NCBI GenBank assembly: GCA_022813865.1
Contig: JALDZX010000008.1
Location: forward strand, 310,001 to 374,000
Reading direction: 5' to 3'
DNA: 64,000 bases
Source of the DNA: Xylographa opegraphella
Taxonomy: Eukaryota
Shown here: piece after piece, positions 1 to 24,059 of the stretch
Numbering within the stretch: the stretch's first letter is position 1
Layout: every line of letters begins with the position of its first letter
Notes under the pieces: model-generated
What the model saw: the letters and a program-made list of their open reading frames with translations, nothing else
The model's database searches: none
Told to the model about the DNA's origin: nothing
Translations under genes and position numbers: made by a program

Positions 1-383
1 GGATTTAATGAGTGTCAGTGCGGAAACATACGCCGCCTTTCGTCGCCGCCGACGAGGCTACGAGTCCGGGAGTCATAGCGCTGGACACTATCAACCTGAT
101 ATAGTTGATGGTAACGAATTCTCTAAACGGATAAGCATCATCTTAGAGTATAAAAGAGAAGAAATCCGTCCCTGTAAGGCCTGTAAGGTTGGAACGACAA
201 GACAGCGCAACCAGGGATGATATCAAAACTACAAGAAAAATCGACAAACAGACACAATAAATGAAGAAGAGTAAGGAATTAGTCATGTGGTATCTAGGAC
301 ACATGTTAGGGCCCACCAGGTCTCAGCTTTCACAATGTTCTAGCTTTGCGTTCAAGCTCTAGTAAGATTGAACTTGTTGCTCG

Positions 384-18100: not shown

Positions 18101-19288
18101 AGGGAGGACGGTCACTAACGGTAATCAGCATCAATCTCCGATCGCAGTTCCGGACTAAGAGACAATTGGCACTTGTTCAATGATTTCTTGGTGAGGAAGG
18201 TATCGAAAACCGATGCTCTACATTTCGCACCGTCATGGAAGATGCCTGCTGTTCTTACATTCCAAGTCGTCAACGGGAGACACGCTGTTGATGATTCGTG
18301 GAAGAATGCTCTTGATCCTACCCTTTTGTATATAGAATACTCCATCAAGTTCGTCGCCTTCTGTCTTTATCATTATGAGCACTAATGTATTGTCAGCAAT
18401 CGACCTCCTCAGGATTGCCAACTTCTGAATCCCGCCACTGAAGCTCCGGTCGCGGGCTCATGCGTAGCGATCGACACAGAGTTTGTCGCCTTACAGCAAG
18501 AAGAAATCGAGATCAAAGCAGATGGTGACCGCGAAATCGTCCGTCCGACCCGACTCGGCCTCGCTCGTGTCTCCGTTCTCCGCGGAAGCGGCATCAACGA
18601 AGGTCTCCCTTTCATCAACGACTATATCACGATCAGTGAGCCGATCGTTGACTACCTCACTAAGTGGTCTGGCGTCCACGAAGGCGATCTCAATAGTCTC
18701 CACTCTTCACACAACCTGGTCCCATTGAAGGTTGCCTACAAGAAGCTTTGGCTCCTCCTTAACCTCGGCTGCATATTCATCGGGCACGGACTCCCCAAGG
18801 ATTTCCGAACCATCAACATCCATGTTCCCAAAGCACAGGTTCTTGACACCGTTGACCTCTTCTACATCCGTGCGCGCCAACGCAAATTAAGCCTGCGCTT
18901 CCTAGCGTGGTATCTCTTGAAAGAAGACATCCAGCAAGAAACACACGACAGCATCGAAGACGCACGAACGGCCCTGCGCCTCTGGCGCAAGTTCGAAGAG
19001 TTCCGCGATGCGGGCGTTGTGGATGCGATGATCGAGGAAGTCTACCGTGAAGGGAAGAAGTGGGGCTACAAGCCACCCGGGGAAGCGATCGGGACGGCCA
19101 TGATGGGTAGGAGAGAGAAGGGCCGTAGCACGGAGGCGAGTCTGGGCGTACCGGGCTTTGACGGTGGGAGGGAGACGCCGGAGATTTTGAGGGGCGGAAG
19201 CGGGCCCGGAACACCGGTCGCGAAGCCAAGGGTCGTGGAGCGGAGGGCGGGGACCGCGACGAGCGAGTGGGAGAGTCCGGCGAAGTGA
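15156..19288 (+). CDS. PAN2: PAN2 poly(A) nuclease catalytic subunit (WD40, UCH-like, DEDD exonuclease), multi-exon
   Basis: MEADWNE start; [49 protein letters not shown]. Confidence 0.96.
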
Positions 19289-19941
19289 GTAGAATATTCG
19301 GAGTATGTTGAAACAGTGACAGGTTTTATATATCCAAGAAAAGTAAGCTTTGATGCGATGTTTAACCCTGTGGTGCGGGTGATAAGTTACACGGCGATCG
19401 AAGGGCACCTAGGAACACATGGGAAGAGGGGTACCTTAGCAGTGGTATGGGTAAATATTACATACATGGTGAGGGTTCGAGGTAAGGTGAGGGCTATGTG
19501 AAGGGGTAGGGTCAGGCCTGTGGTCAGACGAAGGGTCAAGCCTAGGGCTAGGGTCAATTACTGCAAAACAGAGTCTCTGAAGGTAGGTAGGTAATCACCC
19601 ATCACGCACGCAGAGCCTCGCAAGGACTATGAAGCCCGGACGAAGCATGGTAAGCTAACAAGCGACTCCAACCACACGTTCGGTGCGCGGCCAAACGCAT
19701 TCTCCGGACCCGACCTTACCGGGGAACAGAAAGAAAGACACTATTCATCGCACATAGGTTCAGGCAACCCGGCGGGCCGTGCGGAACAAACCACCAAATC
19801 TCTCCACCAGAACTCCTCAAACCCTGCAACTCGAAAAAGCCGAGTGGGCATTGATCTGCGGCCTTGAACGCAGCGCCTGAGACACACAAAGGGGTCCGGA
19901 CAAGCAAGGGGGGCGAGCCACATCCGCAACGGGCAAAAGAG

Positions 19942-20005
19942 AAAAAGCCAAGTCTCAAGACGACGGCTACTTGAGAGACATGTTTGGTTTGCGGCTAACT
20001 TGGCT
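19942..20005 (-). ncRNA. Putative Pol III small structured RNA, copy 1
   Basis: AGCCAAGT/ACTTGGCT terminal stem, CTCAAG/CTTGAG hairpin, T5 run, upstream AT element at 20021-20035, downstream GTTCAAGGC at 19869-19861. Confidence 0.6.
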
Positions 20006-20140
20006 AAGGGATGGGGTTGGTATTATGGTATTTATCATGCAACGAAATGATGTCTATGAGTAGAGGGGAATAAAAAGGAAGGGAAATCAAAAAGAAAAAC
20101 CGGGTTCAATTGAACTCAGGATCCATAGACGGGAACGGCC

Positions 20141-20205
20141 AAAAAAAGCCAAGTCTCAAGACGACGAGTACTTGAGAATCATGTTGGTTTGCAGCTAATT
20201 TGGCT
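20141..20205 (-). ncRNA. Putative Pol III small structured RNA, copy 2
   Basis: Same core with one stem substitution, T7 run, AT element at 20221, GAGTTCAATT at about 20117-20108. Confidence 0.6.
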
Positions 20206-20319
20206 GATGGATGGGGACCGTATTATGATATTTAGCTGGAATGGTGTCCATGGGTGAAACCAAAAAAGAAGGGAAACGAAAAAGAAAATTGAACTCAGGG
20301 TCCATCGACGAGAACGGCC

Positions 20320-20383
20320 AAAAAAGCTAAGTCTCAAGACGACGAGTACTTGAGAGACATGTTGGTTTGCGGCTAACTTGGCT
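20320..20383 (-). ncRNA. Putative Pol III small structured RNA, copy 3
   Basis: Same core with one stem substitution, T6 run, AT element at 20399, GAGTTCAATT at about 20296-20287. Confidence 0.6.
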
Positions 20384-20530
20384 GATGGATGGGGGTCATA
20401 TTATAATACTTATTATCTTGATGGCGTGCAACGCGTAAGGAGGACAGTCAGCAGAAGCCAAAAAGATAGACGGGAATTGAACTTGAGACCCTTCTTGCAT
20501 GTTCTGCAAACAACAGGAAGCGAAACGAAC

Positions 20531-20593
20531 AAAAAGCCAAGTCTCAAGGCTAATTGCTCTTGAGAGACACAGTGGTTTGCAGCTAACTTGGCT
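20531..20593 (-). ncRNA. Putative Pol III small structured RNA, copy 4
   Basis: Same core with loop variant AGCAATTAGC, T5 run, AT element at 20609, GTTCAATTCC at about 20482-20473. Confidence 0.62.
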
Positions 20594-20743
20594 GAGGGAT
20601 GAGTGTCTTATTATGGTATTATTATCTAACATGGTGAGCACTGTGCAAAGATAATCGGCAAAACCGAAAAAGATAAGCAGTGAATTGAACTCAGGACCTC
20701 CTTGCATATTCTACGAACAAGGGAAAGAGTGAACCGAATCGGC

Positions 20744-20807
20744 AAAAAAGCCAAGTCTCAAGGCTACGTGCTCTTGAGAGGCATAGTGGTTTGCAGCTAA
20801 CTTGGCT
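20744..20807 (-). ncRNA. Putative Pol III small structured RNA, copy 5
   Basis: Same core with loop variant AGCACGTAGC, T6 run, AT element at 20823, GAGTTCAATTC at about 20692-20682. Confidence 0.62.
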
Positions 20808-20954
20808 GATGGATCGACATGCTATTATGATATTTATTATGTAAACTACTTAGGTGTGGGTGATCAGCAAGACGCAAAAGTAATAAGAACTTTAAAGTTA
20901 GGAATTGAACTCGGGACCTGCTTGCAAAGAAGTGATAGGCTGAACCAGAACGGC

Positions 20955-21018
20955 AAAAAAGCCAAGTCTCAAGACGACGGGTACTTGAGAGGCATAGTGG
21001 TTTGCAGCTAACTTGGCT
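20955..21018 (-). ncRNA. Putative Pol III small structured RNA, copy 6
   Basis: Same core, T6 run, degenerate AT element at 21034, GAGTTCAATTCC at about 20912-20901. Confidence 0.62.
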
Positions 21019-21378
21019 GGAAGCAGGCCATCGTATCATAGTACATAAACCCATTCTAAAGCGCTTTTCGCTGGCATGGGGAGCCGTAGCCGGATGCGGA
21101 TGAGTAGGGAATGGATGCCACGTGTGGCAATGCATAACAATGAGGAACAGGTCTAACCACGAGCGGCGAGCCCCAAAGAGATTCTTAAAAATGTAGGTGT
21201 ATTTCTATCATAGCCCCTTGAAAATCGTTTATCATTACCTCTCATAAATCAACTATCACCGCTGGGATCATAAGAAAATATGCTGGTTGAGGCGGGATAT
21301 AAACCAGGCTAATCCTCCAAAACCTATATTCTTGCATGTATGCCTCTCAATGACTTGACTCCATTATACGGTCAATAC

Positions 21379-24059
21379 TCATCCTTCCCTCACATCATGC
21401 ACAACTCTCCGGACTCGAGGTGTTTGCGGAACGGGAGAGTCGGAAGGATCGGGCGGCGAAACCGAATAGTTGGGCCCGGATCCTGTCCCGGACGGATAGA
21501 CCGTGTACTGCGTAACTGTGTACGTGTGTCCTGTGGTTATGTAGCTCGTGAACACAGACTGTGTCGTGGCATAGATAGTCGTGGTTGTTGAATCAACAGC
21601 TGTTGTTGTCACCGTGATTGGTATCGTGGTAGTGATCGTCTCTAGCGTAGTATCTGTGGTAGTAAGAGTTCCTAAAGTCTCCGTGGTCAAAAACTCGGTT
21701 GTGACTACTGTAACCTATATCGACCAGACACTGATCAGCCGTGGCCCATTCGGAATAGAGAATGAGTTTTCATACAACGTAGTATGGATAGGAGGTATTG
21801 CCACTCATTGAGTAGTCAGTGCGTGTACCAGGCTCAAGACTTGGAGGGGGTGGAGTTGTATAGCTCAACGATGATCCGTTGCTCACAGTCGTGATTGTGA
21901 GGGTTGAAGTAGAGAGGGCGGTAGGTGACGATGTTAAATTTCCCGAATTCATACTCGTAGCATTGCTATATGGATTATGGTTAGAAGAAATCCAACAAGG
22001 CACGAACGAGAACTCACATAGATATTATGGGTGACACAGAGGGGCCAATAGTAATATTCATCAATGACGAGGGAATTAGAGACGCGGTACTGGCAAAAGT
22101 CGTCGTGTTCGGGAGACCTGTTGACAATAGTACTCCACTTGAAGCAGACGTGGTACCATTCCATACTCCTGTAAAGATAGAGCTCGATGATTTTCCAGTC
22201 GACGGATAAAACGTCACATTAGAAATACCAGTTGAGAGAGGGATGAGAGAGCTATATGGGAATGACGTCGTATTTGGATACCCTGTTGGCATTCCGCTTG
22301 AAGCAGAAAACGCTGTATTAGTTGTACCCGTCGAAAGAGGAACTATGCTTGAACCAGTGCCCGACGAGGTTACATTAGGACTGAACGTCGAAAGCGGAGC
22401 AGTTGGACCGACAGAGCTACTTATATTCCCAGAGGAAGTCGGCAAAGTCAGTGAGCCAGTCACTGTAACCGTGCCATTCATGTCAATGGTAATCACCGAT
22501 GTACTGTTGATGCTAGTAACAACTGCCGTTGTGAAATTTACCTCGGTCGTAGTAGTAACGAGAGCAGTTGTGAAAACCGTTGATGTTACGTTTCCTGTCA
22601 GTGCACTCCCATTTGTTGTAGGAGTGGGTGCTGAGATAATGCTTCCGCTCTCGGGTTGGCCAGTAATACTGAAAGTTCCAGAATTGTACGAGATTGAGCT
22701 GGAAGAGCTTGGAGGAGATGAAGGGGTGATGATTGGAAGCCCACTGGTACCAGAAGACGTGACGTTCGAGATAGTGCTAACACTGAAAAGTGTGCTCGTA
22801 TCTGACGACGAGGGACTCGAGCTGGAAATCGTGCTTGGTAGAGTTGAGTTACTTGCTGTGATTGTTGAGGTGGAAAGTGACGTGCTAATTGTAGAGATTA
22901 AAGCGATCGAGGAAGCGTTACTTGGTACGGGTAATGAAGAAGTCGACGGTACGGGGAAAGCTGAGGAGGAATTCAGTCCAATTGTGGAGAAGGAGCTTGA
23001 ATAAGTTGAGGAAAATGCCGATGATATTAGTGTAACAGTTGTGGTTGTAACGTCCATATCTGTGGTTACAACATCGGTATATTGATAGTTGATCGCAGTT
23101 ATGGTTGTGGACTATTATGTTATACCTGTCTCAGCTGCATTACCCTTAGATTGATAGTGATTGCAATACTTACGATTGTAGTTGTGACAAATGCTGTTGA
23201 GGTCCCTGGCGTAGGAAATTGACAAGAACACGCGGAGGAGATACCGGAGATAAGAGCCGTTTGGTTACAGGCATTACTTTCAAGTACCAGAAGCGGATGG
23301 TCTCCACCCAAGGTCACCGCAGCTGTTGTCTGTGGGCTGCGTTTACGATTGCGAAACAGATCAACCTCGGTCACTGTGGTAGTAACGGTAGATGTGGCAA
23401 TAGTAGTGGTAGATGTCCCGGTTGTATGTGTTCCAGGAAGTGTGGTTGTTGTGGCCCTTTTACGGTCAGTAGAATTCAGCAGTTGTTGATGAAGTAGAAA
23501 CAAACGCATAGACGGTATCAGCATATATCGTAGACACGATTGATGGAATAGAGAGAAAGGATGCACAGAATGACTGGACCTCAGTGGAGGAGACCTCCGA
23601 AAAGGCTGAGTAGTAACTGTCCAAAACACAGACTTGCCCAGGAGGCTGCGAAGCGGTCGCGATGGCGTTGGTGGTGGCGGCAGCTGTAATGACGTCGCTG
23701 CTAACGAAAGTAACATTGGGCTGAAGCAGTATAGTGGTAGCAGGGGAAGGTGTCGTGGTGTTTGACGGTATGGCAGTAGGAGTCAAGAGAACGCCTATAT
23801 CATTGGCTGAAGTTTGCGTCAAGGTTGGGATATCGATCGTTGTAGTTACATCAGTCGTATCTGTAACTATACCGGTCAAAGTAGCGGTAAAAGTATCTGT
23901 TAAAGTGTCCGTCTCATAAACCGTTGTGTATACCATTGTACTATCTTGTCGTCGGTTAAGTTTGGGAAAGCCATTAAGAGCAGCTGGCCACGCAAAGGCT
24001 GAATATGAGAATGAAAGCAGTACGAAGACAGAAACTAAGCTAGAGAGCGGAGTGTGCAT
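21379..24059 (-). CDS. Secreted Ser/Thr-rich mucin-like cell-surface protein, multi-exon
   Basis: Signal peptide MHTPLSSLVSVFVLLSFSYSAFA; long Thr/Ser tracts; SFCASFL and ISSACSC motifs; dibasic RR/KR sites. The ORF pieces are joined by plausible introns. Confidence 0.8.

Follow-up and report, generated by a model that had tools for sequence, protein, structure and literature searches.

A tandem array of six putative RNA polymerase III genes with tRNA-Lys-like, T-armless cores and B boxes behind their terminators in Xylographa opegraphella

The stretch of 64,000 nucleotides (nt) of the Xylographa opegraphella genome analysed here, hereafter the window (assembly GCA_022813865.1, contig JALDZX010000008.1, positions 310,001 to 374,000 of the forward strand), carries on its minus strand a tandem array of six short units, each of which resembles an independent RNA polymerase III (Pol III) gene whose RNA core looks like a transfer RNA (tRNA) deprived of its T arm. 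A preliminary description of this DNA had assigned to every unit a U6/SNR6-like promoter, and all its coordinates were reproduced. The core RNAs lie at 19946..20005 (unit 1, 60 nt), 20147..20205 (unit 2), 20325..20383 (unit 3), 20535..20593 (unit 4), 20749..20807 (unit 5), and 20960..21018 (unit 6, 59 nt). The core of unit 6 comprises an extra A-U pair, a 7-bp acceptor-like stem, the word of tRNA positions 8-12 (a weak A box at +9), a remodelled D region, and an anticodon-arm-like hairpin, and lacks the T arm. Each core is preceded by an AT box (20021..20035, 20221..20235, 20399..20413, 20609..20623, 20823..20837, and 21034..21048 for units 1 to 6, minus strand), which in unit 6 spans -30 to -16 and is a putative TFIIIB/TBP site. 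Downstream, each core runs into a T run, namely T5 at 19942-19946, T7 at 20141-20147, T6 at 20320-20325, T5 at 20531-20535, T6 at 20744-20749, and T6 at 20955..20960, counted with the last T of the core (4-6 T without it). Further on, also on the minus strand, lies a B element at 19856..19878 (unit 1), 20107..20124 (unit 2), 20286..20303 (unit 3), 20474..20491 (unit 4), 20682..20699 (unit 5), and 20902..20919 (unit 6, in the register of tRNA positions 44-61). An acceptor-3'-like word followed by T5 (19834..19845, minus strand) closes the array.

The array sits between two protein genes. The last exon of PAN2 (18386..19288, plus strand, stop at 19288) converges on its downstream end, the array beginning 573 nt beyond the stop; the protein encoded by this exon is 95% identical to that of Xylographa parallela and 94% to that of X. 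soralifera, and the next match is at 78%. On the other side, about 335 nt separate the array from the last frame of a gene on the same strand (21383..23782, minus; boundaries approximate), which contains introns and codes for a Thr/Ser-rich protein with no Pfam match, probably a surface glycoprotein to judge by its composition. Between the PAN2 stop and the array, at 19520-19560, short imperfect tandem words of the AGGGTCA/AGGGCT type have a somewhat telomere-like appearance.

The AT box is the most rigidly placed element of the unit. The word TATTATR or TATCATA starts at 20021, 20221, 20399, 20609, 20823, and 21034, which leaves 15 nt clear of the core edge in all six units, so that the word begins at the 16th base, exactly as the preliminary description had it. 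The resulting AT block occupies -30 to -16 in every unit, as an upstream TATA-like element at a fixed distance would. The two strands of the window together contain 11 instances of the longer pattern TAYYATRATA: six times at the fixed position, three times as palindromic reads of the same boxes, and twice elsewhere. At the other end of the unit, T5-T7 follows the terminal stem in all six cases, again as previously described, and fits an oligo-T terminator on the non-template strand, the first T runs after 30 tRNA genes of the same genome being T4-T8. T runs of four or more are strongly polarized within 19701-21300, with 21 on the minus strand and one on the plus strand. G(G)C comes next after the T run in four of six units, in 10 of 30 tRNA genes, and in 54 of 411 background runs. 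As a side observation, the first T runs of the tRNA genes have G as the next base in 24 of 30 cases versus 163 of 411 in the background, which may reflect a terminator context of this fungus.

Words shared among units that are duplicates of one another prove little in themselves; the informative test is how unequally their parts are conserved. The mean pairwise identity among units is 0.87 in the core, 0.85 at -25 to -16, and 0.86 in the B box; the segment between AT box and core (-15 to -1) reaches 0.55 (0.47 when shuffled) and the remaining spacers 0.40-0.46 (0.35-0.44 when shuffled). Each unit contains three separate conserved islands, one held at a fixed and one at a variable distance.

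The island at variable distance is the B element. GTTCAA is found on the minus strand at 19864, 20110, 20289, 20477, 20685, and 20905, 31-77 nt beyond the core, and the consensus GTTCRANNC is satisfied in copies 1, 4, 5, and 6, in agreement with the preliminary description on each of these counts; outside the array, the hexamer is present in only 2.2% of 80-nt minus-strand windows. A matrix was built on tRNA positions 44-61 from 21 of the 30 fetched tRNA genes of the genome, with seven long-arm Leu/Ser genes left out, along with two loci read in the wrong orientation. The elements of units 1 to 6 rank 18, 3, 9, 7, 2, and 1 with it among 127,966 window positions, which identifies them as tRNA-type B boxes, and their likeness to tRNAs reaches 5' of the B box, into the register of the variable loop. 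T-stem pairing is lost in copies 2-6 (at most three of five pairs), copy 1 alone retaining a perfect 5-bp stem with an 8-nt loop. Since the pairing is gone in five of six, the elements look like DNA signals, and they may be regarded as relics of a tRNA gene retained for their DNA sequence. The 282-nt region upstream of the first unit contains no GTTCR word, and the last unit does have a B element behind it; therefore, each B box belongs to the core that precedes it. In the whole genome, an extended B-box pattern has nine matches, of which three fall in the array, two in tRNA genes, and four outside any tRNA context (control, one).

The surroundings of some of these elements have features of their own. 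The B elements of copies 5 and 6 resemble Pro/Ala-type contexts. Unit 6, alone among the six, has a canonical A-box word between terminator and B box (20940..20947, minus strand; 10.2 bits, top 0.02% of 8-mers), located 37 nt before tRNA position 53 of its B element; this word is possibly a relic of a second tRNA gene. The segment 20902-20954 behind this unit combines that canonical A box with the best B box and is followed by T4 at 20876-20879, and it may give rise to a transcript of its own, as another short tRNA-like unit. Behind unit 1, the segment 19834-19878 contains a full T stem, then a word that could pair at seven of eight positions with the 5' acceptor strand, then T5; it could give rise to a read-through form of about 170 nt or be a relic of the end of the ancestral gene. 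Lastly, the B element of unit 2 lies within a palindrome (20102-20115), so that GTTCAA can be read on either strand.

For an internal A box, each of the six units offers only the word TAGCY at +9, in the register of tRNA positions 8-12, and its distance from the B box is 80-127 nt. A-B distance, position of the AT peak, and A-box strength were compared with 28 of the 30 tRNA loci. In the tRNA genes the AT peak lies farther out, at -35 to -31, whereas the only U6 gene found in this genome (contig C198, about 307319-307475) has its AT block at -31 to -15, the same interval as in the array. The upstream region of this U6 gene ends in ATC, as do those of copies 2, 3, and 5, which favours a transcription start at the A of AGCC; the alternative is a purine at -7/-6. 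The U6 gene carries its B-box-like word inside a predicted 51-nt intron near its 3' end, together with a branch-site word, the splicing being predicted from the sequence only; a spliceosomal intron in the U6 gene of Schizosaccharomyces is the subject of a title in the reference list of PMC5855946. The gene for the RNA of the signal recognition particle (SRP) in this genome has an internal B box. The "U6/SNR6-like" label of the preliminary description thus holds for the layout of AT box, terminator, and downstream B box, and it does not extend to the weak A box at +9, to the A-B distance, or to the U6 gene of the fungus itself, with its B-box-like word in an intron. The associated proposal that each unit is an independent Pol III gene on the minus strand, with its B box behind the terminator, is well supported at the sequence level by the tRNA-register B elements, the U6-like position of the AT box, the B element behind the last unit, and its absence upstream of the first. 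Incidentally, most of the fetched tRNA genes carry introns, and an intron-containing tRNA-Ala(CGC) gene (contig C176, about 547536-547620) is absent from the Rfam tRNA listing of the genome.

The core itself, for which the preliminary description had made no claim of origin, is probably a derivative of tRNA-Lys(CTT) from which the T arm has been removed, a conclusion held with good though not full confidence. Read from its second base, it consists of a 7-bp stem, the tRNA 8-12 word, a remodelled D region, and a stem with a 7-nt loop, after which come two bases, then the first stem's 3' strand with a final U at the discriminator position (discriminator U). In a global alignment that tolerates one long gap, the six cores score on average 24.9 against tRNA-Lys(CTT), compared to 1.3 ± 4.7 (maximum 13.1) against the other 30 tRNA genes; no random genomic 73-mer and no shuffle, out of 5000 each, reaches this value, and reverse-complement cores score at most 5.2. 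When the register is anchored on the structure, 28-30 of 39 positions are identical to tRNA-Lys(CTT), compared to 16.8 ± 2.7 (maximum 20.8) for 29 other tRNAs in the same test with small shifts allowed. Positions 27-30 are identical to tRNA-Lys in all copies and positions 39-45 in four (six of seven bases in the other two). The 7-bp acceptor stem, which has one mismatch in copy 2 and one in copy 3, is followed by U8-R9-G10. At acceptor pairs 4 and 5, both bases have changed relative to tRNA-Lys in all six copies (C-G and G-C to A-U) and are still paired, while pair 6 has passed from G-U to G-C in five of six; the true covariation of the stems is the one between the cores and the parent tRNA, not among the copies. 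The gap of about 20 nt corresponds to tRNA positions 46-65 and covers the T arm (five of six printed alignments, all six by the anchored register). The absence of this arm, which normally carries the B box, accounts for the need of a B box outside, and a core that is a tRNA minus its T arm explains why ARAGORN, which reports no gene in the window, and Rfam are blind to the units. Moreover, the anticodon stem has a 1-nt bulge, a proper D stem is missing, and an extra pair joins positions -1 and 73. The 7-nt loop has CGU as its middle triplet in five of six copies, with U33 in two copies and a purine at position 37 in two, never together, which makes decoding unlikely.

The predicted fold of the minus strand consists of an 8-bp terminal stem stacked on a stem of 6-7 bp, with a side strand of about 20 nt in which a weak 3-bp hairpin is possible; 97.6% of the 84 stem cells pair. 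Next to the apical loop, where the helix is extended by 2 bp, a single event common to copies 4 and 5 has changed both sides of one pair. A guide role on U6 exon 1, SRP RNA, or the 30 tRNAs was considered and rejected, the complementarity being 8 nt at most. For neither arm does the genome offer a near-perfect target above the control level. As a lead only, the 3' arm in copies 4 and 5 is exactly complementary over 16 nt, and that of most other copies over 15 nt, to the end of the first exon and the 5' splice site of a prefoldin-subunit gene (contig C162, 42924-42939), while about 2.4 chance matches are expected over all core 16-mers.

The array appears to be confined to this locus. A covariance model applied to the window gives 88-95 bits for each of the six copies and no more than 10.4 bits anywhere else in it; very diverged copies in the rest of the genome could have been missed. 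In the 24.7-Mb genome, no further copy emerged from a DNA search, from a hairpin pattern, or from searches with the 20-mers of the two ends: the 5' 20-mer has no match within three mismatches outside the array, and the 3' 20-mer has one, equal to the control (one), at a site that the covariance model does not match. Rfam returns no match in the whole window at the gathering threshold and, over 19700-21300 at E ≤ 10, a single unrelated bacterial leader below its own cut-off. Among other fungi, the PAN2 locus was confirmed in 80 of 132 cases, with at least 2 kb downstream in 51 of the 80 and a PAN2 identity of at most 73%, that is, with no close relative among them. At these 80 loci the covariance model finds nothing, nhmmer gives nothing better than E 1.4, and one isolated B-like word of at least 14 bits is present; in the 10 of them checked for repeats, no similar array occurs. 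A strict two-part pattern has no match in metagenome contigs, viral contigs give zero and one chance-level matches, and prokaryote genomes give none. Since no homologue was found outside the locus, there is no cross-species covariation to draw on. Searches of the open-access literature brought up no account either of the array or of any fungal Pol III gene that derives from a tRNA, lacks the T arm, and has its B box downstream, although subscription papers and supplements may bear on this.

These features can be assembled into a single mechanism. An ancestral tRNA-Lys(CTT) gene would have lost about 20 nt covering the T arm and would then have been duplicated in tandem, the core keeping the acceptor stem, positions 8-12, and the anticodon arm, with position 45 running directly into the 3' strand of the acceptor. 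TFIIIC would bridge the downstream B box, 31-77 nt past the terminator, and the weak A box at +9, and would set TFIIIB on the AT box. It is likely, though somewhat less firmly than the origin of the core, that such a tRNA-derived B box behind the terminator drives each unit; the motifs are there to be read, while factor binding and transcription are what they would predict. Pol III would start at the A of AGCC (or at the purine at -7/-6) and stop within T5-T7, releasing an RNA of about 62-65 nt. Devoid of T loop and elbow, this RNA would be a poor substrate for tRNA end processing and would not decode. La binds oligo-U. For a human nuclear tRNA, disruption of the elbow is reported to abolish RNase Z processing (PMC11996679); therefore, an RNA that lacks the T arm and has its -1:73 end paired would be expected to escape processing and to remain bound by La, with a 5' triphosphate and a 3' oligo-U tail. 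Its acceptor and anticodon-like stems may stack into a 14-bp helix with a 12-nt side strand that does not vary among the copies and an apical loop that does, and the most likely role would be that of decoy or regulator of a tRNA-binding protein, six copies providing dose and loop variants. Given the origin and promoter steps, the chances that the RNA is left unprocessed and works as a protein-binding tRNA mimic are about even. The whole account, in which six independent minus-strand Pol III genes produce stable T-armless tRNA mimics that act through a protein, may be right or wrong with roughly equal probability.

Several observations weigh against this account. The A box scores 0.9-1.8 bits versus 5.5-10.7 in tRNA genes and is only within the top 2% of 8-mers, and the B boxes of copies 2 and 3 lack C61, the same two copies that have the acceptor mismatches. 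As to the parent gene, the best random 73-mer scores 24.3 versus 24.9 for the cores, and the Lys register and the gap costs were picked after the likeness had been noticed; moreover, the tRNA set is incomplete, with 63 of 773 candidates scored and one tRNA missed there that turned up later. That the B elements behind the units represent the T arm cut out of tRNA-Lys is unsupported: they do not point to tRNA-Lys in particular, which ties for fifth place in the case of copy 1. At the RNA level, the main stems have no two-sided change in 14 pairs among the six copies, the change at the apical loop is matched by 29 of 500 shuffles, and the folding z-scores (-0.8 to -2.8 on the minus strand, -1.3 to -2.7 on the plus strand) do not favour the minus strand. 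Finally, the metagenome, fungal PAN2-locus, viral, and prokaryote searches yield no homologue outside the locus.

The same Pol III genes could instead produce precursors of microRNA-like RNAs (milRNAs), as in the microRNA (miRNA) cluster of bovine leukaemia virus (BLV), with the 3' arm (about 20-22 nt, from the invariant U through the oligo-U) loaded on Argonaute. The promoter layout and the tandem organization match those described for BLV (PMC12498455), and Neurospora milRNAs are described as Pol III products, one of them linked to a tRNA (PMC3547838). In X. opegraphella, Piwi-domain matches exist at three loci and Dicer_dimer matches at two, the 3' arms fall into two seed classes (copies 1/2/3/6 and copies 4/5) with an invariant U at alignment column 44, and the antisense match of copies 4/5 to the prefoldin gene spans 16 nt. 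Still, a Dicer substrate has a stem of about 20 bp, whereas the duplex here is of 14-16 bp and is interrupted by the side strand of about 20 nt, though a non-canonical fungal route is conceivable, and the genome matches outside the array (none for the 5' 20-mer, one for the 3' 20-mer) do not exceed the control or, for 16-mers, the chance expectation; this reading is unlikely. Somewhat more doubtful is a decay scenario, in which a broken tRNA-Lys gene was duplicated, the cores are alike through gene conversion or recent descent, and any transcript is functionless. The single genomic locus, the lack of outside homologues, the stem mismatches and weak B boxes of copies 2 and 3, and the main stems without covariation would all be expected of such pseudogenes. 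Conversely, conversion tracts should not skip a spacer, and here the AT box retains 85% identity at a distance that never changes, although the 15 nt of spacer in between are only 55% identical, while the B boxes are 86% identical despite spacer lengths that differ by up to 46 nt; in addition, all the acceptor pairs changed with respect to tRNA-Lys still pair in the consensus.

The remaining explanations place the function in the DNA, in a longer transcript, or in translation. tRNA genes and extra-TFIIIC sites show boundary activity in yeasts, and six B boxes together with 21 minus-strand T runs in 1.6 kb between two protein genes could form a cluster of TFIIIC/TFIIIB sites that separates PAN2 from the upstream gene, either as a boundary in the chromatin or as a barrier to transcription, with the RNA as a by-product; this is improbable, as it leaves unexplained the invariant pairing stems outside the A box and the compensatory acceptor changes. 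The proximity of the array to both genes and a plus strand that folds as well as the minus strand would also suit structured repeats in a Pol II transcript, either in an extended 3' untranslated region of PAN2 (plus) or in that of the upstream gene (minus). However, B boxes, T runs, and tRNA homology are limited to the minus strand and the AT box keeps a fixed spacing, which makes such a transcript very improbable. Least credible of all is that the RNAs are aminoacylated and used in translation: T-armless mitochondrial tRNAs of nematodes are functional, and the 7-bp acceptor stem, the discriminator U, and the 7-nt loop in anticodon register would befit a tRNA, yet U33 and purine 37 never coincide, the anticodon stem is bulged, a proper D stem is missing, the -1:73 pair is extra, and neither ARAGORN nor Rfam finds anything.

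The array is a real feature and, as far as can be read from the DNA, a variant of a known layout, namely a set of probable tRNA-derived Pol III RNA genes with an extragenic B box. Saccharomyces cerevisiae SNR6 is described as having an upstream TATA, an internal A block, and a B block past the coding region, with about 200 bp between A and B (PMC5855946); the array follows this layout with its upstream TATA-like box and its downstream B box, and it differs in the A-B distance of 80-127 nt, the weak candidate A box at +9, an RNA unrelated to U6, and the six tandem units. By analogy, the closer architectural counterpart is the BLV cluster (miR-B1 to B5), for which PMC12498455 describes A boxes of degenerate sequence that lie within the hairpin at about +3 to +19, a B box beyond the terminator, and A-B distances of about 34-95 nt. 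Both are laid out as tandem short Pol III units, putative in the case of the array; the array is cellular and fungal, has a fixed upstream AT box, and would fold into a three-way tRNA-derived structure with a helix of 14-16 bp, not into a pre-miRNA hairpin. With tRNA-Lys(CTT) of the same genome, the array shares the acceptor stem, positions 8-12, the anticodon stem, positions 44-45, and the discriminator U, and it differs in the lack of the T arm, the remodelled D region, the bulged and extended anticodon stem, the changed loop, the -1:73 pair, and the B box outside the transcript. Neurospora milR-1 to milR-4, which show that new small RNAs are made with Pol III in filamentous fungi, are described as genes for small Pol III RNAs that lie between other genes and have TATA-like elements and poly-T (PMC3547838), and the units of the array would be of a similar sort; according to the same source, the tRNA-linked milR-4 shares a transcript with intact tRNAs, from which RNase Z cuts it, whereas in the array the RNA body would itself be a truncated tRNA with a short stem. 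In the Leishmania U2 gene, extragenic A and B boxes are reported to be supplied by an adjoining degenerate tRNA-like sequence (PMC4950102), which lies upstream there, while the array has its relic on the same strand and downstream. An analogy of shape only is offered by the dictyostelid Class I RNAs (PMC7919456): as described, they measure 42-65 nt, have a short terminal stem with a conserved motif of about 11 nt right after its 5' strand, and are clustered, with T runs and a fixed upstream element, in another lineage and with the Dictyostelium upstream sequence element (DUSE) at about -60 as promoter.

Membership in the established families was considered and set aside in each case. Non-coding RNAs built from a tRNA gene include the tRNA-derived short interspersed nuclear elements (SINEs), BC1, and mascRNA, which keep the T arm or an internal B box, and SINEs are dispersed; the array is a single genomic locus by DNA and pattern searches, with the B box outside the transcript. 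U6 snRNA (RF00026) has no Rfam match in the window, the U6 gene of the genome being on contig C198. A canonical tRNA was rejected on the absence of a T arm with TTC loop from the transcript, on U33 and purine 37, and on the ARAGORN result. A Y RNA has no Rfam match, and the genome, in an assembly that is possibly incomplete, has no match to the TROVE domain (Ro60). Vault RNA and Class I RNA have no Rfam match either; no search was made for the major vault protein or for DUSE.

If this reading of the array is correct, the birth of a new Pol III RNA gene from a tRNA gene would be traceable here, the B box having moved out of the transcript and freed the RNA sequence from promoter duty, and the SNR6/BLV layout would have arisen on its own in a fungal lineage. 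The six units, whose A-B spacings range over 80-127 nt and whose B boxes differ in strength, form a natural series in which to probe the flexibility of TFIIIC, their compact promoter may be of use for guide-RNA expression in lichen fungi, and they point to RNA genes overlooked by tRNA scanners and Rfam, which rely on the missing T arm. More tentatively, and as a possibility that falls short of even chances, a nuclear tRNA gene may have been split into an RNA module and a DNA module, the promoter role passing to a tRNA-derived B box beyond the terminator once the T arm was gone from the transcript, with the T-armless RNA amplified six-fold and kept by selection. The units would then represent a previously undescribed class of abundant, unprocessed tRNA mimics in lichen fungi, with a side strand that is invariant and an anticodon-like loop that can be exchanged. 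Their target would be a protein that binds tRNA, for example a synthetase, an anticodon nuclease, or a sensor of the Gcn2 type.

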